DNA of 64,000 bases from an archaeon 13_2_20CM_2_53_6 (GTDB lineage Archaea; Thermoproteota; Bathyarchaeia; 40CM-2-53-6), in contig MNDT01000003.1 of the NCBI GenBank assembly GCA_001915065.1, forward strand, positions 6,908 through 70,907. The letters run 5' to 3'. The position numbers and the translations under genes are program-made. The notes under the pieces were generated by a model that did not search any database, had not been told where the DNA came from, and saw only the letters and a program-made list of their open reading frames with translations. Position 1 is the first letter of the stretch. Every line of letters starts with the position of its first letter. Of this stretch, positions 3,806 through 63,688 are shown in pieces.

Positions 3806-3989
3806 AGGGTAATTGTCTATTCTCCAGCTGTTCTAGAGATCTGTTGTTGCTATAAGGTGATTCCGCTTCTCTGGGACCAATGCGAAGAGCGTTGAGGATA
3901 CGGCTCCACCAGCACTGCGGAGATAGTTATCGGTCTGCCTAGAATCTGTATTATCTTTGGAAACGTGAATTCCCGTTTCTACGCAGCTA

Positions 3990-4871
3990 TTAGCCTTGCA
4001 TGTTTTTGCGGAAGTGGCTGTGACTAGCCCCAGAATCTTGCGCCCAGAATAGACGCGGCAATCGCAAACAATCCAGCCATGGGCAGTGTGACCATCCAGG
4101 CCGTCGCCATCCCCGGTGCCCGCGTTGCTGGGGGGTGTGTCCAATCAACGTCTTGGCCACCCGGTCCCCCCAAACTAGGGATCCGGCGACGACGGCGACG
4201 CCTACGATCACGTAGGGCAACCAGACAGTGTCCTCTGGTGTGCTTAGAAGGAGGAATGTTCCCAGCGCTGCCATTTTGGGAGCGTCGTTAACGCCCCTCG
4301 CGAAGGCGACACCTGCAGCGGAGCCCCAATCGGCTAACCCAACACGTCCCGAAGAAGTTTCACTCGCTTCAGCCCCTCGCCTGTGTAACAATCGGCTAAG
4401 TATGTAGACTCCTACCAATGCAGCAAACGGACCAGCGGCTAGGGGAAGGAGGATCCTCCAGATGAGAAAGTCCCATTGTAGACTCGAGGCACCGAGCAAG
4501 TAGACCGCCTGTACAATGATCGCGCCGACTATTGCGTGCGTTGTCGAGACTTGAATCCTGAGGAGAGTTGCGAGCAGGATCCAGGCCGCCGCACCTGCAA
4601 GCGCTGCTAGTATGAAGGAGGACCCGGGAGCGGTCTGGAGGAAGCTCTGGGGCGTGAACGCGGAGAACAGTCTGACCGAGATGACAATGGCAGCGACACT
4701 GCCAAGCCCGCTGAATATGCCCCCCCAGACAAGTGGCGAATATCGAGGCCGAAAGGTTGCTGTCTCAGGGTCTGTCATAAGAGCGATAATGCTCTTTCCA
4801 ACATCATTCGCTCCGTTGCCAAAGGCTAGGACGAACAAAACTGCCAGCCCAATGTCGGCCGTCACGGACAT
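3990..4871 (-). CDS. PiT-family inorganic phosphate transporter (C-terminal tail apparently out of frame)
   Basis: Carries GNGANDVGKS and ARGVNDAPKM signature pairs and VSTTHAIVGA. The last ~50 aa (Arg/Trp/His-rich) look non-native. A conserved AWMVTLP terminal helix lies in another frame (see finding). Confidence 0.7.
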   Translation of the reverse strand: MSVTADIGLAVLFVLAFGNGANDVGKSIIALMTDPETATFRPRYSPLVWGGIFSGLGSVAAIVISVRLFSAFTPQSFLQTAPGSSFILAALAGAAAWILLATLLRIQVSTTHAIVGAIIVQAVYLLGASSLQWDFLIWRILLPLAAGPFAALVGVYILSRLLHRRGAEASETSSGRVGLADWGSAAGVAFARGVNDAPKMAALGTFLLLSTPEDTVWLPYVIVGVAVVAGSLVWGDRVAKTLIGHTPQQRGHRGWRRPGWSHCPWLDCLRLPRLFWAQDSGASHSHFRKNMQG

Positions 4872-5310
4872 TAGTCTTCACCAAACTACCTTGTTCCGCC
4901 GGAACACGTTCCACTGTAGTGAAAGCCGAAAGCGTGAGGGCGATATTTGCAGATTGATACTATTGCCTTTGCAATACCTCAACAGTTTGGAGTAGCGGGC
5001 CGACAGCAGCTCATCGGAATGCCTTCCGATCCGATAGAGGTAGATGGCGACTCGGGGGGGTGTCTTGAGGAGACAGGCGTTGCGTCGACGATTTCGGCGA
5101 ACACAGTGGGATCATGCGTCATGCGATAAACCGTCCTCTCCCTCACGATCCGAGGGCTTGAATTAGATATATTCGAACTCTTGGTGCTTTGACCAAGTCG
5201 AGTCATTTGTGTTCTTCAATGTGTTGTGTGATGCATCTTGTGTTCTCTCGATGAGCGTTCAAATGCGTTGGATGAAATAACCGGATCGGATCTTGGGGGG
5301 AGAAAATCTC

Positions 5311-6999: not shown

Positions 7000-8484
7000 T
7001 TACACTACTTCGGTGAGTCTTAATACGGGAAATCCTTTTTCGAATGAGAAGCTGACACCATGAATATTCGTAAATGGTTTGATGCCGTAGATAATCAATG
7101 AGCCGTTAATATTCTGCATCTTTACGTGATAGTCTGCTATTCTGAGAAAGTCCTCCCTAAGCTTGGTGGGCCTGGAGGCCAAGCCGATGCTGAGGGCCGC
7201 CGAATCCCGAATACTCGCACCAATGTCGGCAAGGCCAGGAAGGAATAGGTCTTCTCCATAGACTTGGACTATCTTGTCGAAATCGCTCGCCAGAACGATC
7301 GATGAGGAGACACTGGTCAACTCTTTCCAGCAAGCACCGAACAACAATGCATCATCCTCAAGGCTCCCTTTCAACAGCAACCGCCACTTCCTAGGGGGAA
7401 GAGTCTGGTTGAACTCTGCGATCCGAACCCTTTCTTCGAGAGCCTTCTGCCCGACGCATCGACCCAATGCTTCAGCTACGTTCTCAGAGCTGATAGTGCT
7501 GGTGGGAACGATGATCGAGGTGCCTCCCTGATTTACAAAGTTAGCGATGATGATCCTCAGTAGAAGTCTCACTTCGACAGGTGCAACGGTGTTGTTGAGG
7601 TCCAATAATAGCGAGGAGCCCTTCCTGATCCCACCCTTCAGCATCTTGTCCAGGTCGGAGCTGCCAGTCGAAAACGATGTTGCGGAGGGAGCAATAGACT
7701 CGGGCATCTTCGCCCTGGTCGGCGTAGCATCGACTATTTCGGAATCCGATAGGAATGTGAACCTGCCCTTGTCCAATGAGAATAGTCCTTGGCTGGTTTC
7801 TACTCTCAGCCCCCGTAGCTTGTTCACAGAGAGCGTCCTGACTCTACGGCCTTCCAGCTGAGATAGGGAGAGATTGACTACTCCGTCCACGAGATGAGAC
7901 ATGTCGCCCGTCTGTCCCCCCTCATTCACGAGCACAACACTCACCTTGCTCTCTTCAGGCTCGGAAAGGATAGCTGACTCGAGCATGCGGCGCCCTTCTT
8001 CGGTTGTGTTTCTGAGAGCCCCTTCCCAACTATCTATGACGATGAGGCTCCTCTGTGAGGAGTGTTTCATATTCAGAACTTTGCTGAGGATACTGTCAGC
8101 CTGCGAGACGCGAAAATCGTTGACTCCCTCAGGCACATTGCCTTTTACTGATCTACCCGATATCGAATCGACCACCTCGTTTAACCAGGGAAAATGTTTC
8201 CGCAGCCTGGGAGGCGAGACACGGCTCGAAATGTAAAGTCTGTTGGGAGGAACGGTGCGGGATCCGATCCGCGGTCCCTCCATCCGTCGAAGAAGCTCCA
8301 GTGCGAGAGTGGTCTTTCCAGTGCCAGGCGGACCTTGAATCAGCAGCACATTCCCGGTCGACTCCAAGAATTTCATGATGAGACCGAGTAGGTCAGCGCT
8401 TCCAGACTGGTCTGAAAGCGGGGTCCCAATTTCAACATCTGGGACCTCCAGTTCTGGGCCAGAGGGGTTGCCCTCAGTAATCAT
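7000..8484 (-). CDS. two-domain RecA-superfamily (KaiC/GvpD-like) ATPase; second domain lacks a P-loop
   Basis: 494 aa. N-domain has Walker [20 protein letters not shown] and Walker B-like SLIVIDSWEG. The second half starts like a KaiC domain (STGSSDLDKMLKGGIRKGSSLLLDL) but has no GxxGxGKT. Confidence 0.75.
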   Translation of the reverse strand: MITEGNPSGPELEVPDVEIGTPLSDQSGSADLLGLIMKFLESTGNVLLIQGPPGTGKTTLALELLRRMEGPRIGSRTVPPNRLYISSRVSPPRLRKHFPWLNEVVDSISGRSVKGNVPEGVNDFRVSQADSILSKVLNMKHSSQRSLIVIDSWEGALRNTTEEGRRMLESAILSEPEESKVSVVLVNEGGQTGDMSHLVDGVVNLSLSQLEGRRVRTLSVNKLRGLRVETSQGLFSLDKGRFTFLSDSEIVDATPTRAKMPESIAPSATSFSTGSSDLDKMLKGGIRKGSSLLLDLNNTVAPVEVRLLLRIIIANFVNQGGTSIIVPTSTISSENVAEALGRCVGQKALEERVRIAEFNQTLPPRKWRLLLKGSLEDDALLFGACWKELTSVSSSIVLASDFDKIVQVYGEDLFLPGLADIGASIRDSAALSIGLASRPTKLREDFLRIADYHVKMQNINGSLIIYGIKPFTNIHGVSFSFEKGFPVLRLTEVV

Positions 8485-8658: not shown

Positions 8659-9144
8659 TCAGCTCTTTCGACTCAGTATGTTGGAAACGTAGTCTTGGAA
8701 GGGCTTGTCGAACATTCCTTCCGAGGTTCGATGAACATCGCGGAATGCGGGATGTCTCGTCACGGCCTCGAGAAAGAGGCTCCACTGGTTCCAGGTGTCA
8801 CTGTCTATCCATTTCTTTCTGTAGAGCAGGTGAATCCTCTCAAATATTCCGTAGAGGAGGAGCATGTAGTTTCGGACAACCATGCTCTCTGGAGGTTGAG
8901 ATTGGAGCTCCGCGCGCGTGGGCATGTTTGCTCTCGCCATCTCCATGGGAAGTTTGCTCAACTGGGGATTCTCAACGAGCATCTTCATCGAGTCAGTATA
9001 ATCGTCCAATGCTCTCTGGTAGGCTGCCTCTCTCGTGGCATTGTTCTGGCTGCGGAAGGAGAGAATGAAGATTACAAGCGTTAGGGTCAGGACGATCGTC
9101 TGAGCAACAGTGCTCCAGACTACTGGGTCGGATATGTCAACCAA
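8659..9144 (-). CDS. hypothetical membrane-anchored protein
   Basis: 161 aa with a TTG start. One N-terminal TM helix (VAQTIVLTLTLVIFILSF), then a helical soluble part. Confidence 0.5.
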   Translation of the reverse strand: MVDISDPVVWSTVAQTIVLTLTLVIFILSFRSQNNATREAAYQRALDDYTDSMKMLVENPQLSKLPMEMARANMPTRAELQSQPPESMVVRNYMLLLYGIFERIHLLYRKKWIDSDTWNQWSLFLEAVTRHPAFRDVHRTSEGMFDKPFQDYVSNILSRKS

Positions 9145-9227
9145 CGCAGGGCAACCCTCTTGACAGGTCCATGGAATTTAACAGTACCATTCACTAAAGA
9201 TAGCTCGCCGAAAATACATTTGCGACT

Positions 9228-9977
9228 CTAGATCTTGGAAGTGGACGCGAGCCTTCGGCTTACTACAGTCATGTGAAAAGAGTCTATGGTGAGCGGAGTT
9301 AATTCTCCTAGGCTACCGTATGATTCAACATAGTCCCACCCCGCTGAGAACAGCAACGCCTTTAGTTCGTGTAGTGAGTATACCCGATGAGATACCGGGA
9401 CATCGGCTATCAGTCGAAGTGAGTTCCTCTCCCTTCGATAAAATTTCCAACTGTTTCTCATGAACGAGGATTCCAAGTCGAGCCTTCTGGCATCGCTCCA
9501 TACCATCTTGCCCATCTCCGAGATGTTCTGCTCTTGGAAGTGCCTCACCAAATAGTCGCGGTTGACTGTCTCGATAACTAAAACTCCATGTCGACCGGTG
9601 ATAGCGCGTAATGAGTGGAGGACTCGTCTGTCATCAGCCTCGCCGTAATATCCCATCGAGGTGCCGATATTGACTACGGCGTCAAACCTGTCTTCTTCAC
9701 TGGCTAGCAGCCGCGTAGCCTTTCTCGCATCTATTCTGTAGAAAATTGTCTTGCCATCTACACTCTCCTTCTTCGCCCATTTCTGAGCTAACCTCAGGTA
9801 CAAAGGAGAAATGTCGACGCCAACGACTTCGTACCCTGCTTTGGCAAGATTGATCGAGATCCTTCCTAGTCCACAAGCTAAGTCTAAGATTCTGCCGCCA
9901 CTCGGGACCCCATGCGCTTGGAAGATTTTCCGCAACCCCTCCACCTGGGGTTGAGCGAACGTATTCATCTGTTCCAT
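9228..9977 (-). CDS. class I SAM-dependent methyltransferase
   Basis: 249 aa with motif I ILDLACGLGRISINLAKAGYEVVGVDIS and a post-I acidic residue. Confidence 0.85.
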   Translation of the reverse strand: MEQMNTFAQPQVEGLRKIFQAHGVPSGGRILDLACGLGRISINLAKAGYEVVGVDISPLYLRLAQKWAKKESVDGKTIFYRIDARKATRLLASEEDRFDAVVNIGTSMGYYGEADDRRVLHSLRAITGRHGVLVIETVNRDYLVRHFQEQNISEMGKMVWSDARRLDLESSFMRNSWKFYRRERNSLRLIADVPVSHRVYSLHELKALLFSAGWDYVESYGSLGELTPLTIDSFHMTVVSRRLASTSKI

Positions 9978-10231
9978 CCACGGAAGAAACAGTTCCGGAT
10001 GGTCGACAAACAGTGTCTCTGTCCAATGCTTGATTCTTCCACGAATCAGCGTCCACTCACCCCATTCCCGAATTTCGATTGGCCTGTCGGTATTGATGCC
10101 TTGTAAGTCTTCAACTGTGGGGCCTTGTACGATCGATATGCGAATCGCAGAGAATGTCGTCGAGTTGCCATCCTAGGCTAAATTGACGCCCAAGGGAAAC
10201 GCATATCCAGTTCTGGGTCATTGACTATTTC

Positions 10232-10633
10232 ATGGCAGAGAGTATCATGCTCGACAGCCAGACTGAGGCTCGGAGACAAGCAGCGAAGCAATTCCTCGAA
10301 CTAGTCGTGGCAGGAGAAATCGACGAGGCGTACCAGAGGCATGTCGACCTTAGTGGCAAGCACCATAACCCCTTCTTTGCGGAAGGCTTTCCCGCGTTGA
10401 AGAAGGCTATGATTGAGAACCATGTCCAGTTTCCGAACAAGAAACTTCTGGTCAAGAATGTCCTCAACGATGGCTACCTTGTAGCAGTGCACTCCCAGAT
10501 CGTGCTTCGTCCGGGGGAGCCGGGGGTTGCCACCGTTCATCTATTCCGCTTTGATGGTGACAAGATCGTAGAAATGTGGGACGTCGGCCAGCCGGTGCCT
10601 AGAGATTCTCCAAACCATGACGGAGCATTCTAG
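10232..10633 (+). CDS. NTF2/SnoaL-like fold protein
   Basis: 133 aa. A..FLELVVAGEIDEAY...HNP......KIVEMWDV is typical of SnoaL-like ester-cyclase family proteins. Confidence 0.7.
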   Translation: MAESIMLDSQTEARRQAAKQFLELVVAGEIDEAYQRHVDLSGKHHNPFFAEGFPALKKAMIENHVQFPNKKLLVKNVLNDGYLVAVHSQIVLRPGEPGVATVHLFRFDGDKIVEMWDVGQPVPRDSPNHDGAF

Positions 10634-10650
10634 ACAAGCGAGCGGGATCG

Positions 10651-11105
10651 TTGGAGGAACCATCCCCGAGAAGATCGGTCGTTTCGGAGTTTGCTACACT
10701 GGACGGTGCCATGGAGGACCTTGGCGGAGCCGAGAAATCCGAGCATGGTGGTTGGATCTGGCCCTACTGGATTGAAGGGATCGGCAAGTTCAAGTTCGAC
10801 GAATTATTCGCGACCGACGCCCTACTGCCAGGACAGGGGACCTAGCAATGCTTCGCAAAGCCTGGCCATCTGTAAAAGACGAGCAAGGATTTACAAATCG
10901 GATGGACAATCTTCCGAAGTACCTGATTTCGAGTAACTTAGAAATCAAGTGGAACAATTCTCATCCCATCGAAGGAGACTCGGAGAAGAAGTGAAGGAGA
11001 TCAAAGAAATGCCTAGGCAAAAATATCGAGGAGGTTCAGCTCGGGCGTTGTTCTACTTCGCTGCGAGCGGGGCCAGAAGCCAACGTAGATTCGGTCCCTG
11101 AAAGG
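10651..11105 (+). pseudogene. dihydrofolate-reductase-like (RibD C-terminal domain family) gene with an in-frame TAG and two frame changes
   Basis: Frame 1: SVVSEFATLDGAMEDLGG..HGGWIWPYW...FDELFATDALLPGQGT*. Next frame: AWPSVKDEQGFTNRMDNLPKYLISSNLEIKWNNS. Third frame: EEVKEIKEMP... Confidence 0.65.
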
Positions 11106-11261
11106 TCACTTTTTGCCTTGACATTTTCCTCTTCGACACTTGCAATTCCTACCGACCTGGGTTGGGACACATTCCCCGTGAATCTCGACTTTGCACTTGT
11201 GACAGATGTCCGGTTGATGCCAGAGACCTTCGTAGCTTATGATGTAGGTATAACGTCTCAT
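11106..11261 (-). CDS. possible 51-aa Cys/His-rich small protein
   Basis: Below the ORF-track size cut-off. Hand translation gives MRRYTYIISYEGLWHQPDICHKCKVEIHGECVPTQVGRNCKCRRGKCQGKK*. GAGGA lies 9 nt upstream of the ATG. There is no homology support. Confidence 0.25.
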   Translation of the reverse strand: MRRYTYIISYEGLWHQPDICHKCKVEIHGECVPTQVGRNCKCRRGKCQGKK

Positions 11262-11443
11262 ATCACACGATCCTCAGAGGCGTCGTCCACAAATACCTGC
11301 GATCTCGGGCTTGTTTCAAGCCGAGCAGATTGCATTGCAGTCAGGCTGAGTTGCTTCTCGCAAATAAAGCGATCAATCGATTTCCTGCCCTCCAGTTCAA
11401 TAGAATCGAGCTATAGCCTAAACCCCCGTCGATTCTTCAAGTT

Positions 11444-13098
11444 CTAGCCTTGTCCTTTAGGGCTCAATCTTCTGAGCTTCTTTTCGCTGATGTCCTGAAT
11501 AAGGATGGATGCGCCTATTGTCCGGCCCGTGGGGTCGCTGATAGAGGTCACTGATAATGATACGTCGATACTGGCACCGTCCTTGCGCGTAAGCCGCGTC
11601 TCGTATGGAAGAATACGTCCATCGCGCTTGAGCCGCTCGAGGATTTCGGATTCTCCATTCTCGCCGGAAGGCATCAGGATACCCCCTTCTGACCTACAGC
11701 TTCGAGGGTACTGTAGCCGAAGATACGCTCTGCACCCTTGTTCCAGCTGACAATCGTGCCGTCCAAAGTTTCTTTTATGATGGCGTCGCTAGAGGTTTCC
11801 ACAATGGCGGCGAGACGGGCGCGCTCTTCCTCAACACGCCTGCGTTCTGAGATGTCGCGGATGGCGCTTGAGACCAGAACGCCTGAATCTGACTGGAGTG
11901 GGCTGAGGCTGATCTCGACGGGAAACTCTGTCCCGTCCTTTCGAAGTCCATAGAGTTCCATGCCCACTCCCATCTCACGTCTACGTGGCGTGGCGTGGAA
12001 GTCTGCACGGTGCGCTACATGTCCAGTCCGGAAGCGCTGAGGAATGAGGTCCTCCACCTTCAGGTTCAAGACTTCTTCACGAGCATAGCCGAACAATGCT
12101 TCGGTCTGCGAGTTTACCTGAACTATCCTGCCTTGAGCATCAGCGATGACCATCGCATCGGGGGCTGAATCGACTAGGGTCTCGAACCGGCTTTCAGCAG
12201 CTCGTGCTTTCCGCGCCTCTTCCTGAGCATCCAATCTCTCATGGACCAAAGCGCTCAGGGCAAGACCAACAGTAGCGAGCACCATTATCGAAAACTGGAG
12301 CGAGAGGAGAGCCGTGTTGGTGCTCCCGGAGCCATAGGGCCCGAGTCTCCCAAGTGTACCCCAGATAGCGATTGTTGAGAAGAGGAAGGTGGCTCCAGTC
12401 GCGCCCCTCGACCCGAAGCGTAACCCTGCCCAGACGATTATCGGAACGACCGTGAAGCTAAGCGCTACAGGGGGGATCGAGGAAAAGATCAGAGGCGCGA
12501 AAACGGTTGCGCCCGCGATTAACACCACCAGAATCAGCAGAACAAGTTCACGAAGACCACCGACAGGCACTTGCTTGGGACGGAGGACAAACGATATAAT
12601 TAGAGGTGCTACGATGAGAGCTCCTGACGCGTCGCCGAGCCACCAAGTCGTCCATACCACACCTTATAGGGACCACTGAACCAGCCCGTCCGCGGCCAGG
12701 CTTGTTGTTCCAACCGTGGCGCTGACCAAAGGGGCGGCCAGGCCGGCGGCAAGAACGAAGACTCCCAGGCTACGTGCCCCATTAAACGCGTGCACTCCAT
12801 GAGCGAAACGTACAACGAGCCAGAAGGCCATGAAGGCCTCCAAGGTATTTCCCGCCGCGATGGCTATGGACGTGATGGGACCGGAAGTCAGAGAATTGGC
12901 GGCAAAGGCTCCAATGTATATTCCGGGCCAGAGCCGCGGACCCCAGATCAGAAGTGCAGCGATCGCGAGACCGGTTGGAGGCCAGACCGGACTGGCGCTC
13001 GCGTTCAGCGTTGCGAACAGCCTCAGGCTGCTGAACGCTACAGCCATGTAGACAGCGGCAAAGATTCCATTGGAAACCAATATGCTCTCGTTGCGCAT
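11444..13098 (-). pseudogene. MASE1-PAS-PAS membrane sensor without output domain; interrupted by an in-frame TAA and one frame change
   Basis: Three consecutive ORFs. 12664-13098 and 11674-12660 share one frame and are separated by TAA (complement of 12664-12666: ..VQWSL*GVVWTTWWLGDASG). 11444-11674 continues the second PAS domain in the next frame (..RLTRKDGASIDVSL..IQDISEKK). Confidence 0.7.
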
Positions 13099-13690
13099 GA
13101 CGCTCAGTGGTCTTCACGCCCATTCTGCTAATATGATATTTAGCCAGGGAGTTGGCGAATCCCGTCTACTTGACCCCAAGTAAGTTCTTGGCCTTATTCA
13201 TTTCAAAGAAGAACGCCACGCTGGGCACCAGTTGACGTTGCAAATCAGTCCCCGTAAGAAAGAGGTCAACTAGTTCGCTAAAGTGCGAGGCAACTAAGAT
13301 CGTCGAATCGGACTCGCATAAAACGAAGTCCCTAGGTGGGTAAGAGCTGAAGGCTCGATTGTAGACGAATAAGGAGACGTGAAGCCTACACCGTAGTATG
13401 AGACTCATGCGAGAATAGTATCCGACTAAAGAGCATTCAAGGATTGATCGATACCCGCCTACCGGCGGAAAGAGACTCAGCTAAACCCTGTGTTATCCGC
13501 CAGGTGCGGGTGCTGCCTTGCGGGTTCGACTTCTTCAGAGTAGATCCTCTTAAGATTCGAATGTTCATCTGTCCCATGCTTCTTTCGAGGATGAAGGTAT
13601 GATCGATAGTTTCTGGCGAAGCCCCTAACAACGACAACTTGTAATGACTGTGGCTCGGAATCCTCGGACATGCCATAATTCATACGCTCA

Positions 13691-14523: not shown

Positions 14524-14639
14524 CTCGACCAGCGGCGATGCGGGTCAACGAAGCAAGGCATGCAGACAGGACGGAGGCAACACCCTATTTGTGGCTAGAG
14601 GGAGCGATCAACGCTCCTCCTTGTAAACAGATGATTGCT

Positions 14640-14670
14640 GGTTGGAGGTCTTCCAACCTAGAATATTTTT
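14640..14670 (+). terminator. hairpin (GGTTGGA/TCCAACC) followed by T5
   Basis: ggttggaggtcttccaacc tagaata ttttt, downstream of trxA. Confidence 0.35.
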
Positions 14671-14705
14671 AGTCGAAACCCAGGCACGAATGAGACTGAT
14701 CACTG

Positions 14706-15115
14706 ATGGGTTCGGAGAAGGGTCTCCCGTTCGGACAGCTTAGATACTGTATGTTGGAAGCTCAAACGTCCAGAAGGACCTAGAATACTACACAGGGATC
14801 CTTGGTGCCAAGAAAGTCTGGGACATTTCCAGCTCTGGCACAAGGGTCGCGGCCCTTCGCCTGGGTAGAGGCCCAGCAATATTACTTGCAGATCATCGTC
14901 CGGCCGGAACTTGCATCCTAATCTTTCAAATCGATGATCTAGCGGCTGCGTCGAAGCAGCTTCGGAAAAAGGGCTGGAGGCGCGAGGGTGAAAGTTTCGA
15001 GATTCCCGAGGGACCCTGCTACAGGTTCAACGATCCGAGCGGCAACCCACTCGCCCTGCTAGAGGTGGTTAGGCCAAATGTCTTCGGATCGAGCTTTGAG
15101 GATGAGAGTCGATAG
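14706..15115 (+). pseudogene. VOC/glyoxalase-family protein with an N-terminal frame change
   Basis: ATG 14706 gives MGSEKGLPFGQL.., which stops at 14781. An open frame from 14744 (no start codon, so absent from the ORF track) encodes ILYVGSSNVQKDLEYYTGILGAKKVW...FEIPEGPCYRFNDPSGNPLALLEV, ending at TAG 15113-15115. Confidence 0.6.
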
Positions 15116-15248
15116 TCTCAACGGGAACTCTTGTTTTCCGGAAGGCAATATCCATGTTTCCAAGAACTTGCTGCGCAGGCTCATTTCCTCGACCGGGCTT
15201 GGGTGACAGAGTCGGAAGTGATCGTGACATCTGAGGAGGAGCCAGGAC

Positions 15249-16145
15249 TTAGGGCTGCGTCGGGGCTCTTTCTTCTGGTGAAGGTGTTGGGGGAATTGTT
15301 CGTACTTCCTTCCATGTCGTTACCATCACTGGAATAATTATCGCCACCAGAAATGCCAGTACTATGAGGTTCCCAAAGTCCACAGGGATAATATCTGCCA
15401 AACCGAATTGGAAAAGGAGGCCTGCAATTATGAAGGCTATCCCTCCAAGCAGAAGGCTGCGCGCTCCGACACGGACCCCGAAGATCTGCATTCTCTCCAC
15501 GCCCCACCTCTTAGCGACCTGCAGAACCTCGCCGAACGTGAACCCTATGACCAGAAGGATCAGCATTGTGCCCAGGCCGAAAGCGGCGCCGGGCGCGAAC
15601 CCCAGGGCTGAGGATGGCATCGCTGGGACAGCTACGAGATAGACAAAGGTCGTGAAGAGGCCGGTGTCGACACCAAATCCGGAGATGAATCCGTGGATTA
15701 GGCACCAATGTACTGGGACTGTCTTCTGTAGCCCAGACTGGGACTGCGTCGATCCTGCCGAGTCCTTTTTCAGGTGTCGCTCTCTATCTCTCGTTGAAAT
15801 CCACATGAGAGGGTGCCAGTGGGGAAGCTTGTCCCGAAGGATGAGGTAGCCTGCGAGGCTCATTGCCAAACCGACAGCAACGTACACTGGACCGTTGAGC
15901 CCCTCGTTGAACGCAAGGAATGTCACCAGGGCGAAGTAGACCAGCTGGGACATGATGGCGCGCTGGACGGTAAACGCGGCAGCAAAGTAGGCCCCTGAGA
16001 GCATACCCCCACGTCCTGTAGCCGAGCCGACGGAATAGCTGAAGGTGATCGGCCATGTGTGCTCGTCCGGGATTACACCATGAAGCATTCCGAGCGCAAG
16101 GCTTGCTCCGAGGAGGTATACCCACCCGGGAACTATTGGAAACAT
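15249..16145 (-). CDS. polytopic membrane protein, putative Ni/Co-type metal transporter
   Basis: 298 aa, multi-TM. LHGVIPDEHTW resembles the NiCoT HX4DH signature, with a second LIHGFISGFGVD. Divergent from nikR. Confidence 0.5.
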   Translation of the reverse strand: MFPIVPGWVYLLGASLALGMLHGVIPDEHTWPITFSYSVGSATGRGGMLSGAYFAAAFTVQRAIMSQLVYFALVTFLAFNEGLNGPVYVAVGLAMSLAGYLILRDKLPHWHPLMWISTRDRERHLKKDSAGSTQSQSGLQKTVPVHWCLIHGFISGFGVDTGLFTTFVYLVAVPAMPSSALGFAPGAAFGLGTMLILLVIGFTFGEVLQVAKRWGVERMQIFGVRVGARSLLLGGIAFIIAGLLFQFGLADIIPVDFGNLIVLAFLVAIIIPVMVTTWKEVRTIPPTPSPEERAPTQP

Positions 16146-16187
16146 GTCATGAGGCCTCGCAACCCGCGTTATTAGACTTCTGCCATT

Positions 16188-41864: not shown

Positions 41865-41897
41865 CTGTGAATACGTTCGTACTTGCCACCATTCTGG

Positions 41898-41982
41898 TGC
41901 GGGGGGTGGGATTTGAACCCACGAACCCCTACGGGACAGGGTCCTGAGCCCTGCGCCTTTGACCTGGCTTGGCAACCCCCGC
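41898..41982 (-). tRNA. tRNA-Leu (CAG), no intron
   Basis: GCGGGGG TT GCCA AGCCAGGTCAA AGGC G CAGGG CTCAGGA CCCTG TCCCGTAGGGGTTC GTGGG TTCAAAT CCCAC CCCCCGC A. Long variable arm and anticodon CAG. Confidence 0.9.
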
Positions 41983-54221: not shown

Positions 54222-54336
54222 TGGTGGACCGGGCGGGATTTGAACCCGCGACCTTCCGGTGTCTTGACACTCTAGGCATGCAAACCGGACGTTCTTCGGC
54301 CTGACATGTCAGTATACCAGGCTGAACTACCGGCCC
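54222..54336 (-). tRNA. tRNA-Ala (UGC) with two introns (D-arm ~20 nt; canonical 37/38, 18 nt); CCA encoded
   Basis: GGGCCGG TA GTTC AGCCTGGTA [TACTGACATGTCAGGCCGAA] GAAC G TCCGG TT TGC A [TGCCTAGAGTGTCAAGAC] A CCGGA AGGTC GCGGG TTCAAAT CCCGC CCGGTCC A CCA. The G3:U70 Ala identity pair is present. Confidence 0.85.
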
Positions 54337-57474: not shown

Positions 57475-59703
57475 CTAGGCGAGGCTTGCCGTTAGTGATT
57501 TCTTGTCGTAGCCCAGGGGTAAGAGTAGGTTTGCAGCAGAAGAGATCAGAAGGCCGACGTATCCTTGAAGGTTGATAACTGTGTTATCGTCCACAAGTTC
57601 TGGTGGAGCAGCTGTGGTCATAGTTCTATTTGAACTGTCGATGGTCATGACGTAGCTTACTTGCTGTCCCGCATGAACTGATCCTCCCTCATTTTTGAGG
57701 AGCTGTGCTGCGATGGCCTGGAGTACTTTGTGAGAATACTCGCCAGGGTTCTTGCTCAAACTTCTTGTTATTACAAGTTCTTCGAGAGGAACGCTGTTGC
57801 TTTGCAGTTTCGAAGCGTATTCTCTGAGAATGTCGAGGGCTTGGGGGACTAGGGTTTTGAATTCTCGGGAATCGTCGGCAGTAGATAGAATAGCCAGCAT
57901 GTCTCTCTGGCACTTTCTGACTATCTCCGGAGTGTCGTGGCGTCGGAGGTCTATTCCTCTAACTCTTAAGGTCCGGTTCTGGAAGATGCCATAGTATCTG
58001 TTGAGGACTTGCGCTTGCGGGTCTGTCTTGGAGTCGAGAAAGACTATCCATTTGTATTGGCCCTCAAAGCTCAACGGAATACGAAGATCTCTTTGCAACA
58101 ATTCACATAACGCCTCATAATCCGCTGCTGTAGCTTCAGGTCTTGAAAGCCACATAGAGTCGACAATTCCATGGACTAGCTTGAAGCCGTGGGCTTGGGC
58201 TAAAGCCACAGCACGGTCGAGGAATACTCGGGAGAAGGCGCATGTTGCAATGTGCGCATCTATTTTGCCGAAACGAGCATTCTTGAATCCTAGGTATCCG
58301 AATGAGCAGACAAGTATCCATTTGAGGGCTGACTGGCGTTGATCGAACTTATCTCTTAGCTGTTCGTCTTTTATTTCTCTTTTTTGCTTCTTGTAGCTCC
58401 TGCGTCTTCTTAGAAGAATATCTAGCGACTGTGGAACGATGCCTATCTGTCTGCCGCAGATATTGTAGTCTAGTTCTGGGACGCGAGAGCGTGGTGTGAG
58501 ACAGCATTTGCAGTTGACCGTTTCTCCGCTCAGGTTCTTGTCTCGCATTAAGGTCGGGTAGAGGCTTGTGAAATCCAGTTCTCCAACCTGGTCGTGTATT
58601 CCTGTTGCTGGTCCGTAGATGAAACCTCCCCGGTCTGCATTGACAAGTTCCTCGCTGTCTTTCAATTCTTCAGGCTGGTTCTTGTTCCATGGTATGAGAA
58701 CTTCTTTTTTGAAAGCATGGTAGAGTTGTAGGCTCGTCATGTTGGTGCCGATCGTGGCCCTACTAGCGCGCTGAATTGGAATGATGCATGTCCGAGATAT
58801 TTCGAAGAGTCCTTCTAGTCCACAGTCGGCGCTGATGAACGCGTTATGCCCATCAATGTGCAGTCTGCCTAGCAGTCGAGCGGCAGTTTCGCGGTAGAGG
58901 ATTTTCCCGTAGGAGAAGTATGAGTGGCCCTGAACCTCGTATACTCTGAGCGGTGAAGGGTCGCGGCCGAGAATCAGCCTGTCGAGCATTCCGTTTTCAT
59001 GGGCGCGTCTAGCAAGGTAGGGGAAGATGAATGAGTCTCCACCTTCCGTAATGACAATATCAGGATCGGCTTCTCTGAAGCAATCAACAAGACCGAGAAT
59101 CTTCTCTCCTTCGCTGCCAGAGTCTATTGTGAAAGCCTCACCATCATCATGTTTGATTTGGAGAGAGCCTAGCTCATCCTCAAAGGTTCGGATTTTCCTG
59201 GTTTTCCTTGTCTTGACTTCTAGTCGGATTTCTCGGAGAGTCGGCAGCTTGTAATCAATTGTTTCCCTCGAGTCTCGCAGATTCCACTGAACTTCATCAT
59301 CCTTCTCATCAGCTTCGACTAGGGCTAAGGGAAAGAGGTCTTTCTGGTAGAGGTAGACTTGGGGAGAGGGAATGTCGACATCGTAGAGGCGGAAACGGGA
59401 GTATTTGCCTTCTCTCTGTATTCTGTTCGCAAGCTTCGCTGCCTCATCGTCAGTTTCAACTTCTATTTCGAGGACTCTGGTTTTTTCGATATCGCCTGCT
59501 CTCTCAAACTTGTCGACAAAGTGGCACTGTTCGATGTATGACTTGCAAGCTAGGTCCACGAGCTCTCGATAGTTTCCTCCTACGTGCAGCTTTGGCTTCC
59601 ATCTGTCGATGAGCCTTACGCATCTTCCGTCAGGTTTTTTCAGCCAGACTACCATATAGCCGGGCTTGTGATAGAGATCGAGGATCCAGCCCAGATGTTT
59701 CAT
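57475..59703 (-). CDS. polB: family-B DNA polymerase with degenerate exonuclease motifs (PolB2-like)
   Basis: ORF 57475-59802. Likely start is ATG 59703 (MKHLGWILDLY). Motif A is ELDFTSLYPT, the motif-B region is KWILVCSFGYLG and the motif-C region is LVHGIVDSMW. Confidence 0.9.
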   Translation of the reverse strand: MKHLGWILDLYHKPGYMVVWLKKPDGRCVRLIDRWKPKLHVGGNYRELVDLACKSYIEQCHFVDKFERAGDIEKTRVLEIEVETDDEAAKLANRIQREGKYSRFRLYDVDIPSPQVYLYQKDLFPLALVEADEKDDEVQWNLRDSRETIDYKLPTLREIRLEVKTRKTRKIRTFEDELGSLQIKHDDGEAFTIDSGSEGEKILGLVDCFREADPDIVITEGGDSFIFPYLARRAHENGMLDRLILGRDPSPLRVYEVQGHSYFSYGKILYRETAARLLGRLHIDGHNAFISADCGLEGLFEISRTCIIPIQRASRATIGTNMTSLQLYHAFKKEVLIPWNKNQPEELKDSEELVNADRGGFIYGPATGIHDQVGELDFTSLYPTLMRDKNLSGETVNCKCCLTPRSRVPELDYNICGRQIGIVPQSLDILLRRRRSYKKQKREIKDEQLRDKFDQRQSALKWILVCSFGYLGFKNARFGKIDAHIATCAFSRVFLDRAVALAQAHGFKLVHGIVDSMWLSRPEATAADYEALCELLQRDLRIPLSFEGQYKWIVFLDSKTDPQAQVLNRYYGIFQNRTLRVRGIDLRRHDTPEIVRKCQRDMLAILSTADDSREFKTLVPQALDILREYASKLQSNSVPLEELVITRSLSKNPGEYSHKVLQAIAAQLLKNEGGSVHAGQQVSYVMTIDSSNRTMTTAAPPELVDDNTVINLQGYVGLLISSAANLLLPLGYDKKSLTASLA

Positions 59704-59859
59704 CAAGTAATCATGCTGGGTATCCTCTCTTTCGAGAAATTCAGAAGAGAAATGTGAAGAGTGAATGTGAAAGAATTGCGAAACAGCGAGTAACGTGCAC
59801 AATCGTTCCTAGAAGTCTTTCATACGAGTAGACTCCTACTACCAGAACCGTCGTAACGT

Positions 59860-60780
59860 GTGGCGAGGATGGGAGAAGCTCAGGGTCCGAAGAGAACAGG
59901 TAAGTTGCCTGAGTTCGACAAGCTGTGGGACTATGCTCACCCGGACATTAGCGAGCAGAGGTTCCGTGAGCTTCTTCCAAGGGCGTTAGACTCGCTCGAC
60001 CTTTCCTATCTTGCACAGCTCCTAACGCAGATAGCGAGGGCGGAGGGCTTGCAGCGCAAGTTTGAGGATGCTCACAAGACTCTGGATCGAGTCGACAAGG
60101 CGCTGCCAAAAACTGATGGCAGGACGCTGATCAGGTATCTGCTGGAACGTGGAAGGGTCTATAATTCTTCGGGGAGTGTTGACGATGCGAAGCGTTTGTT
60201 TCTTCAGGCGTTTGACTTGGCGGTCAAGTCGAAGGAGGACTTTTACGCGGTGGATGCTGCTCACATGGTGGCGATTGTCGAATCGCCGGAGAACCAGTTG
60301 GAGTGGAATCTGAAAGCTCTGGATCTGGCCGAGAATTCCCTGGATGAAAGGGCGAGAAACTGGAAGGGTAGTCTCTATAACAATATCGGCTGGACATACT
60401 TCGACGGGGGAGAGTTTCAAGAGGCTCTGTTCATGTTCGAGAAGGCTCTGGAGTTTCGAAGACAACAAGGCGATCCGGTCAGCATTGGGGTTGCAAGGTG
60501 GTGTGTTGGCAAGACGCTTAGGATGATGGGCCATACCGAGGAGGCGCTTGAGATACAGCAGGAGCTTTTTCAGGAATATCAGTCCGCGGGTCGGAAGAGC
60601 GGGTTTGTCTATGAGGAGATTGCTGAATGCCTCGTGCTCCTGGGAAGAGAGCAAGAAGCTCAAGACTGGTTTGCAGCAGCTTACGGCGAGCTTTCGAAGG
60701 ACCCGTCTGTCGCGAACGACCGGGATCGTTTGATTAGGCTGAAGACCTTGGGGAAGGTCGGCCTGTCGGAACAGTATTAG
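59860..60780 (+). CDS. tetratricopeptide-repeat (TPR) protein
   Basis: 306 aa with repeated A..F..AL...../G....A pairs (e.g. EALFMFEKALEFRRQQGD, EALEIQQELFQEYQSAG). Confidence 0.75.
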   Translation: MARMGEAQGPKRTGKLPEFDKLWDYAHPDISEQRFRELLPRALDSLDLSYLAQLLTQIARAEGLQRKFEDAHKTLDRVDKALPKTDGRTLIRYLLERGRVYNSSGSVDDAKRLFLQAFDLAVKSKEDFYAVDAAHMVAIVESPENQLEWNLKALDLAENSLDERARNWKGSLYNNIGWTYFDGGEFQEALFMFEKALEFRRQQGDPVSIGVARWCVGKTLRMMGHTEEALEIQQELFQEYQSAGRKSGFVYEEIAECLVLLGREQEAQDWFAAAYGELSKDPSVANDRDRLIRLKTLGKVGLSEQY

Positions 60781-60784
60781 TTGC

Positions 60785-61789
60785 TTACTGGGAGTATCCT
60801 GCTAGTGTTGGATTGTCTAGTGGCACTTCTGTATCCTTCTCTGGTATGAAGGGGTGGCGGGAGACGGTGAGCTTTGTGTAGGCGCCTCTGTCTTTGAGAG
60901 TGGCGGAAACATGGGCTGTGCGAGTGAGCGCGTCTTCCATGGTCTTGCTTCTCGCCTTCAGATTGGTGATTAGGATCAGAATATTTCTTGCCTCTGCGGT
61001 TGTTGCTAGGAACCGTATGCCTTTGCGGAAAATGTCAAGGGATTCTTTCTTGTCGCGTACGTCTGGGTCGCAGAAGAGCGCTGTGATGTCAGAGACTACT
61101 GTCAGCCTTGCCTTGTACTCGTCTAAGGCTGAGGCCAGCTTGTCTATTATGAGGTTGTAGACTTGATGGTGTGTGAAGGCTCTGCTGAGATGGATGCGTT
61201 CATGAACTCTCTCTTCGTCCAACTCGAGGTTGGTGATGTGTTGAGAGATGGTGTACGTGTCGAATAGGTTTCCTGCGTCTATGAAGACGACATCGCTGTT
61301 CAAGCCTCTTGGTGGTGGGAGTGTTGCCCTAACGCAGAGTAGGAGTGAGAGAGCGTTGGAAGGCTCGCCCTGGAGGAAAACCAGTTGGCCTTTTTTTAGA
61401 ATCAGTATCTTGTCTATCGCTTCTATTCCGGTTGTTATGCTGGGCTGGAGGTCTCTTGGTAGACTGTTTCCTCTCCGGGTTTGGTGTTCGAGAGGATCGT
61501 CTGGCTCTAGGAGTATCTCCGCGTCCGGGCACTTTAGGTTGGTGAGGAGTCGTCTCCCCGGTGGGAGAATTGAGGGTCTACAACCTAGGACTTTGTCGAG
61601 TTCGAGGCTGCATCCGGGGCAGGTGTTGTTGAAGATTATCTGTATTTTTTGGGGGTTGATCTGGTGCTTGGAGAGGATGAGTGCCTCATCGCATAGGACA
61701 CAGTGGTAGAGGTAGCCTTCGATCCCGTTCGTAGCGTCTAGTTGCCAGGTCTTTGGCTGTAGAGGTTCGATGGTGCTATGTGTCTGCAT
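60785..61789 (-). CDS. RadA/RadB-like RecA-fold paralog with N-terminal 4-Cys zinc ribbon and no Walker A lysine
   Basis: 334 aa. HCVLCDE...TCPGCS, TTGIEAIDKIL..KGQLVFLQGEPSNALSLLL (P-loop position), VVFIDAGNLFD, RLTVVSDITALF and NILILITNL. Lies 24 bp downstream of radA on the same strand. Confidence 0.7.
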   Translation of the reverse strand: MQTHSTIEPLQPKTWQLDATNGIEGYLYHCVLCDEALILSKHQINPQKIQIIFNNTCPGCSLELDKVLGCRPSILPPGRRLLTNLKCPDAEILLEPDDPLEHQTRRGNSLPRDLQPSITTGIEAIDKILILKKGQLVFLQGEPSNALSLLLCVRATLPPPRGLNSDVVFIDAGNLFDTYTISQHITNLELDEERVHERIHLSRAFTHHQVYNLIIDKLASALDEYKARLTVVSDITALFCDPDVRDKKESLDIFRKGIRFLATTAEARNILILITNLKARSKTMEDALTRTAHVSATLKDRGAYTKLTVSRHPFIPEKDTEVPLDNPTLAGYSQ

Positions 61790-61813
61790 CGCGGGGTCGT
61801 TGGAATTGGGGTC

Positions 61814-62785
61814 TTAGTCGTCGCGTCGGTTCTTTGGTGCTGCGTCCTCTACTCCTTTCTCTGTGATCTGGAAGTATGCTTCGGACTCTGGGAGGTAGGG
61901 AGAGTCTATGATCTTGGCTACTCTTAGTCCTTGGCTGGCTTTTTTGAGCATTACTCGGTGGGTTGAGGCGTGGGCTAGAATGTTTCCTCCTGCGGGTCGT
62001 GTGGGGTCTCCGAAGAATGCTTGTGGGTTGGCCTGGACCTGGTTTGTTATGACGACTGCTAGGTTGAGGGCTTGGGCTATTCTGAGTAGTTTGTGGAGGT
62101 GGCTGTTTAGGCGTTGTTGTCGTTCGCTGAGGGATTCTCGTCCTATGTATTCGCCTCGGAAGTGGGAGAGGATGGAGTCTACGACTAGGAGTTTGATCTT
62201 CTCTTCTTGGCAGATCTTGAATGCATGGTCGACCGTGAGGATCTGGTGGTCGCTGTTGTAGACGCGGCTGTAGATGATTCCGTCAAGGATCTTCTCGGGG
62301 TCCAGCTGCATGGCCGTGGCCATCTGGTAGACCCGCTGGGCGGCGAAGGTTCCTTCAGTGTCTATGAAGAGGACTTTGCCTTCTAGGCCACCATCTTTGG
62401 CTGGAAGCTGTGTAATGACGCTTAGCTTCATGCATATCTGGGATTTGCCTGCGCCAAATTCTCCTACGAACTCGGTTATGGCCTGGGTTTCAAGTCCGCC
62501 GCCTAGTAGCTTGTCGAGGTTGCTGCTGGCGAAGCTGAGTCTCTGGAGGTCCTTCCGTCTCTCGTAGAGCTGTTTTGCTGTTATGAAGTCTGTCTGGATT
62601 GTTTCGCGTGCTGCTCTGGAGATTTTGAGTGCGACGCTGTTTTCGAGGCCTGCTTTATCGATGAGTTCTCGGATGGGGGCTATTGCGAGGGAGGCGATCG
62701 AGTCGTAGCCTGCTTCTCGGAGCTTGTTGGCGGTTACGGGTCCGACGCCGTTCAGGTCTTGGATGTCGACTATTGCTTCTGCCAA
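61814..62785 (-). CDS. radA: DNA repair and recombination protein RadA
   Basis: 323 aa with HhH LNGVGPVTANKLREAGY, Walker A GEFGAGKSQ, VLFIDTEGTF, Walker B LLVVDS and VVITNQV. Confidence 0.95.
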   Translation of the reverse strand: MAEAIVDIQDLNGVGPVTANKLREAGYDSIASLAIAPIRELIDKAGLENSVALKISRAARETIQTDFITAKQLYERRKDLQRLSFASSNLDKLLGGGLETQAITEFVGEFGAGKSQICMKLSVITQLPAKDGGLEGKVLFIDTEGTFAAQRVYQMATAMQLDPEKILDGIIYSRVYNSDHQILTVDHAFKICQEEKIKLLVVDSILSHFRGEYIGRESLSERQQRLNSHLHKLLRIAQALNLAVVITNQVQANPQAFFGDPTRPAGGNILAHASTHRVMLKKASQGLRVAKIIDSPYLPESEAYFQITEKGVEDAAPKNRRDD

Positions 62786-63688
62786 TGACTATCTGTTCTG
62801 ACGGTTGGTTGGGTCTGGGCTTATCTCTCGATGTGAGGAGTGAAAGTAATCATGCCCTTTTCGGGAATCCACCCATTCGTTTCTTGCATGACTGATTGTT
62901 TCCAAAGAGCTGGTTTGTGTCGCGGGAATTTTTTTATTTCTAAATTCCTGGCGGGGTCCTTTCGCCATTTGAAACGTTTCTGGGCGAGATTATCGGTTTG
63001 TGTTGCAGAACGGGCTTGTCGGCTGTTTTCAGTAGTTGCTGCGTGGCGGCCCTCCAAGCGTGCGAAACCAGCCGCGTGGGACCCCCCTCCCCGATTGCTG
63101 ATCCGGGCTTATTCTGGGCGATTTTCCAGATCCGATACTCTCCCAAAGAGCTCTTCTGTGTCGCGAGGGTCTACGCTTTCTTGATTTCTTGGATGGTAAC
63201 GGGCTTGGTAACGGTGGATGGCAACGGTGGGAGGGGTGTTGTGCTCGGTTGTCGGTGTTGTCTTCTGGTCGGGGTTTGGATGGTTCCTCGGTGGTGGGAC
63301 GTGCCTTGTTGGAGCTTGTTATGGTTCGCCAGGAGAGAGGGTCGGAGCATCTTCATCCTCGTGGGATCGGAGATCAGCCTCGCCTGGGACTCATCCGTTA
63401 CTACTTTGACGGCTAGCGGTCTCGGGTGGACAGGTTGGTAGTAAGAGACTCTCCCGGTTAATCGTGGTCTTGTCGGGTTGGAAGTGCTTGATGGTATCCA
63501 AAAATCGGGTGAATTCGTCTCTCCGACCTCGGATATCCTTGGATAAAAGTCGAAAGAACGCTCTCACCGGCTAGACGCATGTAAGCCAAACACTATATCA
63601 GCGGACCCAAGATTCGAAAAATTGGTCCTTCCATCTTGGTCATGCACCGGTATCAGGCGAAAACGGGTTCGAAATTGGTCGCGCCTAT

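Follow-up and report, generated by a model that had tools for sequence, protein, structure and literature searches.

What does a RadA-like protein without an ATP-binding site do when its gene lies directly behind radA? The question is raised by a 64,000-nucleotide stretch of the genome of the archaeon 13_2_20CM_2_53_6 (Bathyarchaeia; contig MNDT01000003.1, positions 6,908 to 70,907), referred to here as the window, in which a 334-amino-acid RadA paralog is encoded next to the canonical recombinase. It had been proposed, from the letters alone, that this pair could represent an undescribed archaeal recombination-mediator module. Our analysis points elsewhere: the paralog is most probably iRadA, a subunit of the PolB2 (Dpo2-type) translesion polymerase encoded in the window beyond a neighbouring TPR gene. 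Both radA and the paralog are on the minus strand and they are separated by exactly 24 nucleotides, as had been noticed. The features of the pair are the following (pLDDT, predicted local distance difference test).

61814-62785, minus strand: canonical radA recombinase, 323 amino acids, with HhH N-domain, FITA motif and Walker A
62576-62587, minus strand: FITA polymerisation motif of radA
62441-62464, minus strand: Walker A of radA, GEFGAGKS
61790-61813, minus strand: spacer of 24 nucleotides between radA and iRadA
60785-61789, minus strand: iRadA, ATPase-inactive RadA homolog, predicted PolB2 accessory subunit, 334 amino acids
61505-61729, minus strand: N-terminal Cys4 putative zinc-binding domain, residues 21-95, with CVLC and CPGC as candidate ligands
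61691-61702, minus strand: putative ligand pair CVLC
61610-61621, minus strand: putative ligand pair CPGC
61445-61504, minus strand: disordered linker between the putative zinc domain and the RecA core, residues 96-115, pLDDT 50-64
60821-61444, minus strand: RecA/Rad51-like core, residues 116-323
61346-61369, minus strand: degenerate Walker A, GEPSNALS (K to S, S/T to N)
61163-61192, minus strand: family signature HLSRAFTHHQ (SRAFTxxQ), with R203, F205, T206 and Q209 invariant or nearly so in diverse alignments
61058-61105, minus strand: Walker-B-equivalent strand and family signature LTVVSDITALFCDPDV, with Ser for the RadA Asp; the next residue, D234, is invariant
60788-60814, minus strand: disordered C-terminal tail NPTLAGYSQ, pLDDT below 50, with T328 and L329 nearly invariant

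The product of the upstream gene is a canonical RadA, scoring 441 bits on the NCBIfam model NF003301 (cutoff 259) and matching Pfam Rad51 (E = 8e-85) and HHH_5. Residues 117-277 of the paralog match Pfam Rad51 (PF08423) with an E-value of 8e-11 and 42 bits, above the cutoff of 22, and in a direct BLASTP comparison the paralog is 29% identical to the adjacent RadA across 142 amino acids. In that alignment, K114-S115 of the RadA Walker A face S144-N145 of the paralog, while the RadA Walker B aspartate faces Ser233. The motifs that had been quoted for the paralog are all present: TTGIEAIDKIL (residues 119-129), GEPSNALS (141-148), VVFIDAGNLFD (167-177), LTVVSD (229-234) and ILILITN (270-276), preceded by CVLC (30-33) and CPGC (57-60). 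No HHH_5 match is found in the paralog with Pfam, so the RadA HhH N-terminal domain is missing and the putative zinc domain takes its place; the linker sequence PDDPLEHQTRRGNSLPRDLQ contains no FxxA polymerisation motif of the RadA type.

An AlphaFold2 model of the 334-amino-acid protein, made with an alignment of 67 sequences, has a mean pLDDT of 87. It consists of a compact N-terminal domain (residues 21-95, pLDDT 87-97), the disordered linker, the RecA core, for which the pLDDT is mostly above 93 and lower over the final fifteen or so residues, and a disordered tail (residues 326-334). When the model is compared with known structures by Foldseek, Dmc1, Rad51 and RadA are found at E-values of 1e-17 to 1e-14, with template-modelling scores of up to 0.83 against core-only RadA and Rad51 chains. 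The protein thus has a RecA/Rad51 fold in which the ATPase residues have been lost.

The loss is a property of the family. A word-indexed search yielded 375 homologs of the paralog, about 332-345 amino acids long, annotated as "hypothetical" or "Rad51" and coming from Bathyarchaeia metagenomes, and an exhaustive phmmer search gave 491 clusters defined at 50% identity. Eighty related loci (numbered with an L below) were fetched from species-representative genomes, nearly all of them Bathyarchaeia metagenome-assembled genomes, together with a few metagenome contigs; gene neighbourhoods were counted in the 66 complete loci, and the Walker A position was inspected in 85. In none of these 85 loci, nor in any of the 150 best representative clusters examined, is GxxxxGK[ST] present, which excludes a local mutation or sequencing error. 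The family consensus at this position reads G-[ES]-x-x-(C)-x-x-L-S-x-L-L-C-V-R-A, and two further signatures, S-R-A-F-T-x-x-Q and V-V-S-D-I-x-x-L-[FY]-x-D-P-D, are characteristic. One relative (L006, from the metagenome-assembled genome BA_12) is 94% identical for the paralog and 99% for RadA; RadA is 83-99% identical in related loci of the soil clade and 71-74% in a deeper radA-linked clade. Against relatives, the ratio of nonsynonymous to synonymous substitution rates (dN/dS) is 0.11-0.27 for the paralog and 0.015-0.06 for radA. The paralog gene is therefore under purifying selection, with an evolutionary rate roughly five times that of radA (dN of 0.20-0.23 versus 0.04). Its reading frame is intact in nearly all of hundreds of contigs, frameshifts or truncations being present in L028, L038, L044, L045 and some read fragments.

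Several known families share features with the paralog, and it falls far below all curated cutoffs for RadA, RadB, Rad51 and Dmc1. As a canonical RadA it scores 37 bits (cutoffs 259 and 361), and it has neither P-loop nor HhH domain. RadB and the KaiC-like aRadC are likewise short RadA-family proteins without HhH, but retain Walker A and B; the RadB model TIGR02237 gives 25.7 bits (cutoff 172.4), there is no Pfam KaiC match, and the only archaeal KaiC model matched, TIGR03878, gives 16 bits (cutoff 232). Bacterial RadA/Sms bears a superficial likeness in the order of its parts, its RecA-like domain coming after a C4 zinc finger at the N-terminus, but it is a hexameric helicase which keeps Walker A and has a KNRFG motif and a Lon-like C-terminal domain; TIGR00416 does not match the paralog, which ends at residue 334 without a Lon domain.

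The family to which the paralog does belong has been described. Inactivated RadA-family ATPases associated with PolB2 and an uncharacterised arCOG07300 protein were published in 2013-14 (Makarova 2014, PMC4104785), and in 2025 the system was modelled by Timinskas (PMC11791011), who named the two partners iRadA and PPB2 and noted a conserved MGRT arm in the latter. The published iRadAs (arCOG07763, arCOG04294 and arCOG08101; S. islandicus WP_012710852) have in common with the window protein a Rad51/RadA core with the ATP-binding residues lost, the lack of HhH, C-terminal tails resembling PCNA-interacting-protein motifs and, at the family level, genes that accompany those of PolB2 and PPB2. Bathyarchaeota operons are among the data of PMC11791011, the definition of which allows operon variants. 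A direct link is provided by the published PolB2 MBS7657419.1, assigned there to the class "1a iRadA-PPB2-PolB2": it shares 99.7% identity with a PolB in our set, that of locus L071, and the gene upstream of this PolB encodes a homolog of the window protein (E = 1e-26). The trio of genes found in the relatives is the published iRadA-PPB2-PolB2 operon.

In the window, the polymerase gene and the gene that precedes it are made up as follows.

59860-60780, plus strand: TPR-repeat gene between iRadA and PolB2, 306 amino acids, Pfam TPR_12 E = 6e-17
57475-59802, minus strand: PolB2, Dpo2-type family-B translesion polymerase, with a probable true start at Met34 (59703)
59014-59043, minus strand: degenerate Exo II of PolB2, GGDSFIFPYL, by alignment to the P. 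abyssi PolB
58624-58701, minus strand: PolB2 segment VLIPWNKNQPEELKDSEELVNADRGG (VLIPW...ADRGG), candidate iRadA-binding beta-alpha motif and D(K/R) motif
58552-58578, minus strand: PolB2 motif A, LDFTSLYPT, intact
58147-58173, minus strand: PolB2 motif C, HGIVDSMWL, with IVD replacing DxD

The polymerase matches Pfam DNA_pol_B (E = 6e-31), and eight published PolB2s of Bathyarchaeota align to it at 41-49% identity, with an E-value of 2e-119 for the best. Judged by its sequence, it is a PolB2: the first aspartate of motif C is replaced, the exonuclease site is degenerate, as the original prediction had recognised, and it resembles the published members. The motif C variant HGIVDS[LM]WL, with IVD, is tabulated for Bathyarchaeota PolB2 in the supplement of PMC11791011. 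Segment VLIPWNKNQPEELKDSEELVNADRGG may correspond to the published iRadA-binding beta-alpha motif and the PPB2-contacting D(K/R) motif (PMC11791011, section 3.3.2); the pattern [LV][IV]PW...ADRGG also occurs in the PolB2s of Bathyarchaeota, Thermoplasmata and haloarchaea listed in the supplement of that paper.

Across the relatives, the polymerase is the constant companion of iRadA. With a polymerase of the window type counted as linked when it lies at most 3 kb downstream, it is found near iRadA in 62 of the 66 complete loci, co-oriented in 53 and inverted in nine. A PPB2-type gene follows iRadA directly, between iRadA and PolB2, in 42 loci; its product has 84-93 amino acids and starts with MGRT[IV]PS[WY]R. 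Two members with no more than 22-25% identity to the window protein are found in overlapping iRadA-PPB2-PPB2-PolB2 operons, one of them near a DUF72 gene, in agreement with the operon classes of PMC11791011. The gene radA, on whose adjacency the mediator idea had been built, lies directly upstream of iRadA in only 26 loci. It is kept next to iRadA in the soil clade, with radA-linked iRadAs ranging in identity to the window protein from 94% down to 35%, but its adjacency is not general. The spacing between the two is 21-27 nucleotides in most radA-linked loci and 39-93 in a few. Neither a T-run nor a hairpin was found in the spacer of the window; the promoter and terminator scan used bacterial-type models, which are uninformative in an archaeal host. 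From this arrangement, radA and iRadA are probably co-transcribed in the window.

Some variations on the operon were also seen. L024, L025, L027 and L045 have an additional PolB-like open reading frame (positions about 3500-4920) directly upstream of iRadA; it is very divergent, 27-28% identical to the C-terminal half of the window PolB2, and the true PolB2 of these loci is found some 2.4 kb downstream of PPB2. An archaeal metagenome-assembled genome (L068, 5001-6164) contains a 387-amino-acid open reading frame that appears to be an iRadA-PPB2 fusion; such fusions are reported in PMC11791011.

The window protein differs from the published iRadAs in its N-terminal extension of about 95 residues, which carries the Cys4 domain. 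Fusion of such a domain to the core had been noted from the sequence, and C30, C33, C57, P58 and C60 are invariant in an N-terminal alignment of 37 sequences, in which the mean column identity is just 33%. Modelled alone by AlphaFold2, the domain retains its topology with a pLDDT of 80-91. The four cysteines suggest that it binds zinc; tethered by a flexible linker, it may serve as an extra DNA- or partner-binding module. A Foldseek search of the Protein Data Bank (PDB) with its fold gave no significant neighbour (best E = 1.9); rows for Rev7 and Mad2, with a probability of at most 0.04, were noise. Pfam does not match the domain either, the SWIM domain included, and a profile search for it in other proteins listed truncated iRadA fragments only, with a doubtful sensitivity, since full-length iRadAs were missing as well. 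In the 66 complete loci the domain is present 39 times, mostly in Bathyarchaeia, the other 27 loci encoding core-only proteins of about 235-285 amino acids. A zinc, cysteine or ribbon feature of iRadA is not mentioned in the text and supplements of PMC11791011, nor in the passages of PMC4104785 on radA, arCOG07300 and zinc. The same holds for linkage of iRadA to radA in the text and supplements of PMC11791011, whose neighbourhood tables label a fixed set of components without radA, and in those passages of PMC4104785.

The distribution of the domain was set beside that of the neighbouring genes. All radA-linked loci except L051 encode a zinc-domain-bearing iRadA, the other core-only iRadAs having no neighbouring radA, while 14 of the 39 zinc-domain-bearing proteins are encoded without radA and 16 with an adjacent PPB2. 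The domain is present in each of the 23 loci, from at least two clades, in which PolB2 is linked and PPB2 is not adjacent, and all 26 core-only loci with PolB2 retain PPB2. The association between the domain and the unlinking of PPB2 is suggestive; the loci are not phylogenetically independent, and domain and PPB2 occur together in 16 of them. The domain is neither a fused PPB2 nor an outright substitute for it: the two have no similarity, and some loci have one or two PPB2 genes in addition to a zinc-domain-bearing iRadA.

Several observations weigh against assigning the window protein to the PolB2 complex. The operon is not intact in the window: PPB2 is absent from the 64 kb, and iRadA and PolB2 are separated by the oppositely oriented TPR gene. 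A tblastn search with six PPB2s found nothing at E < 1 in the window, which extends 57 kb on the PolB2 side and just 1.2 kb past radA, and the best hit of a 45-sequence profile hidden Markov model to any stop-to-stop open reading frame of the window has an E-value of 0.9. The close spacing of radA and iRadA on one strand, equally compatible with a function directed at RadA, the Cys4 domain, to which the published family description makes no reference, and the statement in a 2026 review that the PolB2-iRadA-PPB2 complex is an AlphaFold prediction awaiting experimental verification point in the same direction.

The absence of PPB2 extends to the clade of the window, in which no PPB2 is found beside iRadA except in L012. 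Where flanks reach 5-8 kb, PPB2 is seen only in L003, 5.8 kb off. In the sister sub-clade, PPB2 lies 6-8 kb from PolB2 or farther, and at least once no PolB is present within 10 kb. The relocated PPB2 of soil Bathyarchaeia (PF26485/DUF8156) has a conserved ICMT/PEMT-PPB2 neighbourhood, with an SDR gene before it in L086-L088 and L090. The positions are:

7533-7844: PPB2 in L003
about 10001-10327: relocated PPB2 in L086-L088 and L090
1094-1360: relocated PPB2 in L089

Because 342 close PPB2 homologs exist in the soil lineage, relocation of PPB2 is more likely than its loss; the basis for this is the lineage and not the window's own genome. The TPR gene occupies the same place only in the window, L004/L005, L006 and L022. 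It converges on iRadA with a gap of 4 nucleotides, and since it is on the opposite strand, radA-iRadA and PolB2 are separate transcription units in the window.

Taken with the published models, the following picture can be proposed. The window iRadA would be a RadA/Rad51-fold subunit that neither binds nor hydrolyses ATP and has a structural role in the PolB2 polymerase. In the model of PMC11791011, one PolB2, one iRadA and three PPB2 chains form a heteropentamer, PolB2:iRadA:PPB2(3), in which PolB2 imitates the oligomerisation contact of Rad51 with a beta-alpha motif; this motif would dock in the pocket of the iRadA core that, in a RadA filament, takes the FxxA of the neighbouring protomer. 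The PPB2 trimer would place its MGRT arm between PolB2 and iRadA, and the C-terminal tail of iRadA or PolB2 would tether the complex to PCNA. PCNA-binding motifs are described on iRadA tails in PMC11791011, with AVTMDMFM listed for a Bathyarchaeota iRadA. The tails of our relatives that align to NPTLAGYSQ read NQTLTRYL, QTLESYI, VLEEFLE and VTMDMFM, and the window tail is a candidate PCNA-interacting motif, apparently a degenerate one. The assembly would extend primers across or past lesions at stalled forks, and the polymerase may be damage-inducible. In the soil clade, iRadA would have become the second cistron after radA, PPB2 would have moved elsewhere in the genome, and the TPR gene would have been inserted before PolB2. 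The window gene differs from the published iRadAs in being probably co-cistronic with radA, without PPB2 in its operon, and in the TPR gene before PolB2.

In the mutasome that Pol V forms in E. coli (UmuD'2C-RecA-ATP), a translesion polymerase is similarly associated with one RecA-family protomer, bound by a filament-mimicking motif, an analogy argued in PMC11791011. Pol V differs in being a Y-family polymerase that uses an active, ATP-binding RecA from the filament, whereas here a B-family polymerase would use a dedicated ATPase-dead paralog.

The original prediction had likened the paralog to mediators of the Shu type. An ATPase-dead paralog of this kind would bind RadA or cap RadA filaments, tuning the assembly of the presynaptic filament apart from PolB2. 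Shu and the other RAD51-paralog complexes (Csm2-Psy3, SWS1-SWSAP1, BCDX2, CX3) indeed consist of structural partners with a Rad51 fold, some without ATPase, and Shu has a zinc-finger component; RAD51-paralog complexes capping RAD51 filaments are among the top Foldseek matches of our model, and radA precedes iRadA on the same strand even where iRadA has diverged widely. As its Rad51 core has been kept, iRadA could in principle accept the FITA motif of RadA, but it cannot extend a filament, having no FxxA. There is no specific sequence relationship with the Shu proteins, which act on Rad51 filaments and in which the zinc finger is the SWIM domain of a separate subunit, Shu2/SWS1. Moreover, the deep partners of the whole family are PolB2 and PPB2 and not radA, which, with one exception, does not neighbour core-only iRadAs. 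In the S. islandicus models of PMC11791011, PolB2 is specific for iRadA rather than RadA, and no RadA-iRadA pair is reported. A mediator function apart from PolB2 is on this evidence unlikely.

A second alternative, which we regard as very unlikely, is that the iRadA of the radA-linked clade connects PolB2 with RadA filaments by way of its putative zinc domain, so that the polymerase is recruited or activated at RadA-coated single-stranded DNA in the manner of RecA* and Pol V. The restriction of the co-cistronic arrangement to zinc-domain-bearing iRadAs (apart from L051), the removal of PPB2 from the operon of that clade and the published Pol V analogy fit this proposal. Its basis is contextual only: the domain is also found where radA is absent and where PPB2 is adjacent, and the Pfam, PDB Foldseek and profile searches gave no hint of a ligand. 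Finally, that the gene is a decaying radA duplicate or that its P-loop reflects a local mutation or sequencing error is refuted, for despite its faster evolution the gene has an intact frame in nearly all contigs and is under purifying selection, with invariant signatures of its own and the identical P-loop loss over the 85 loci.

Other features of the locus and its relatives deserve description. The plus strand of the radA/iRadA region (60000-63500) has a GC skew of +0.19 to +0.25 and an AT skew down to -0.37, a strong asymmetry that probably reflects minus-strand coding. In L004/L005, a gene for a terminase large subunit (Terminase_6N, 14621-16174) is located about 2.3 kb past PolB2, so that this relative may have a provirus or the remains of a virus close to the locus; a terminase gene is likewise found at the end of L090.

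The PolB2 genes of relatives are interrupted at a single site, within V-C-S/F-G-Y of the KWILVCSFGYLG motif (the slash marking the interruption); the window equivalent, 58288-58323, is uninterrupted. Thirteen loci (L023, L025, L026, L029, L031-L035, L039, L041, L043 and L044) contain inserts of 20-32 nucleotides in the context ...GUCUGCUCAU/A.../U[CU]GGNUA..., the start of each insert creating an in-frame TAG. The inserts fold as a bulge-helix-bulge, with an outer helix formed between the exons, a central helix GCUC/GRGC, 3-nucleotide bulges AUA and ARU on opposite strands, and inner hairpins that vary, with at least three sequences unrelated to one another. If both bulges are cut behind their second nucleotide, KWILVCSFGYLGFK is regained in each of the thirteen, whatever the length of the insert. 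From these features, an archaeal mRNA with an intron of the splicing-endonuclease type is probable here. Splicing of mRNA is very rare in archaea; the classic case, cbf5, was also the example found in the literature (PMC2738675).

In five loci, PolB2 carries an intein (Intein_splicing and LAGLIDADG) that follows KWILVC, one codon upstream of the mini-intron site: L001 and L002, which are the same place (9098-13156), L018, L038 and L087. In three separate metagenome-assembled genomes (L008, L010 and L011), one extra nucleotide (CTCCTTTCGG versus CTCATTCGG) causes a +1 frameshift at the intron/intein site, for which misassembly, a scar, pseudogene formation or recoding may account. The only tRNA found in the window by ARAGORN is tRNA-Leu(CAG) at 41895-41982; a further tRNA of 112 nucleotides at 54225-54336 on the minus strand, which probably contains an intron, is detected by Rfam (50.5 bits) and missed by ARAGORN.

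The original prediction is thus partly supported, being right on the anatomy of the locus, including its neighbours, and wrong on its novelty and on the likely partner of the paralog. The main value of the analysis is this corrected reading, as a PolB2 iRadA subunit and not a new recombination mediator. While iRadA of the PolB2 mutasome is itself known, the zinc-domain-bearing, radA-linked and PPB2-unlinked variant is undescribed. To our knowledge, the PolB2 translesion system is known only from Sulfolobales genetics and AlphaFold models. A conserved putative zinc domain without structural relatives, present on more than half of the iRadAs in our sample, is not accounted for by the published heteropentamer. 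The supposedly obligatory PPB2 can leave the operon, in our sample only where the zinc domain is present, and the probable radA-iRadA transcript of one clade hints at co-regulation of recombination and damage tolerance. It is conceivable, if doubtful, that in the soil clade radA has been made part of the mutasome locus and PPB2 driven out of it, with the Cys4 domain coupling PolB2 to RadA-coated single-stranded DNA or replacing part of the role of PPB2. If true, RecA*-dependent Pol V activation would have a counterpart in this archaeal clade, one that uses a dedicated dead paralog together with a live recombinase.

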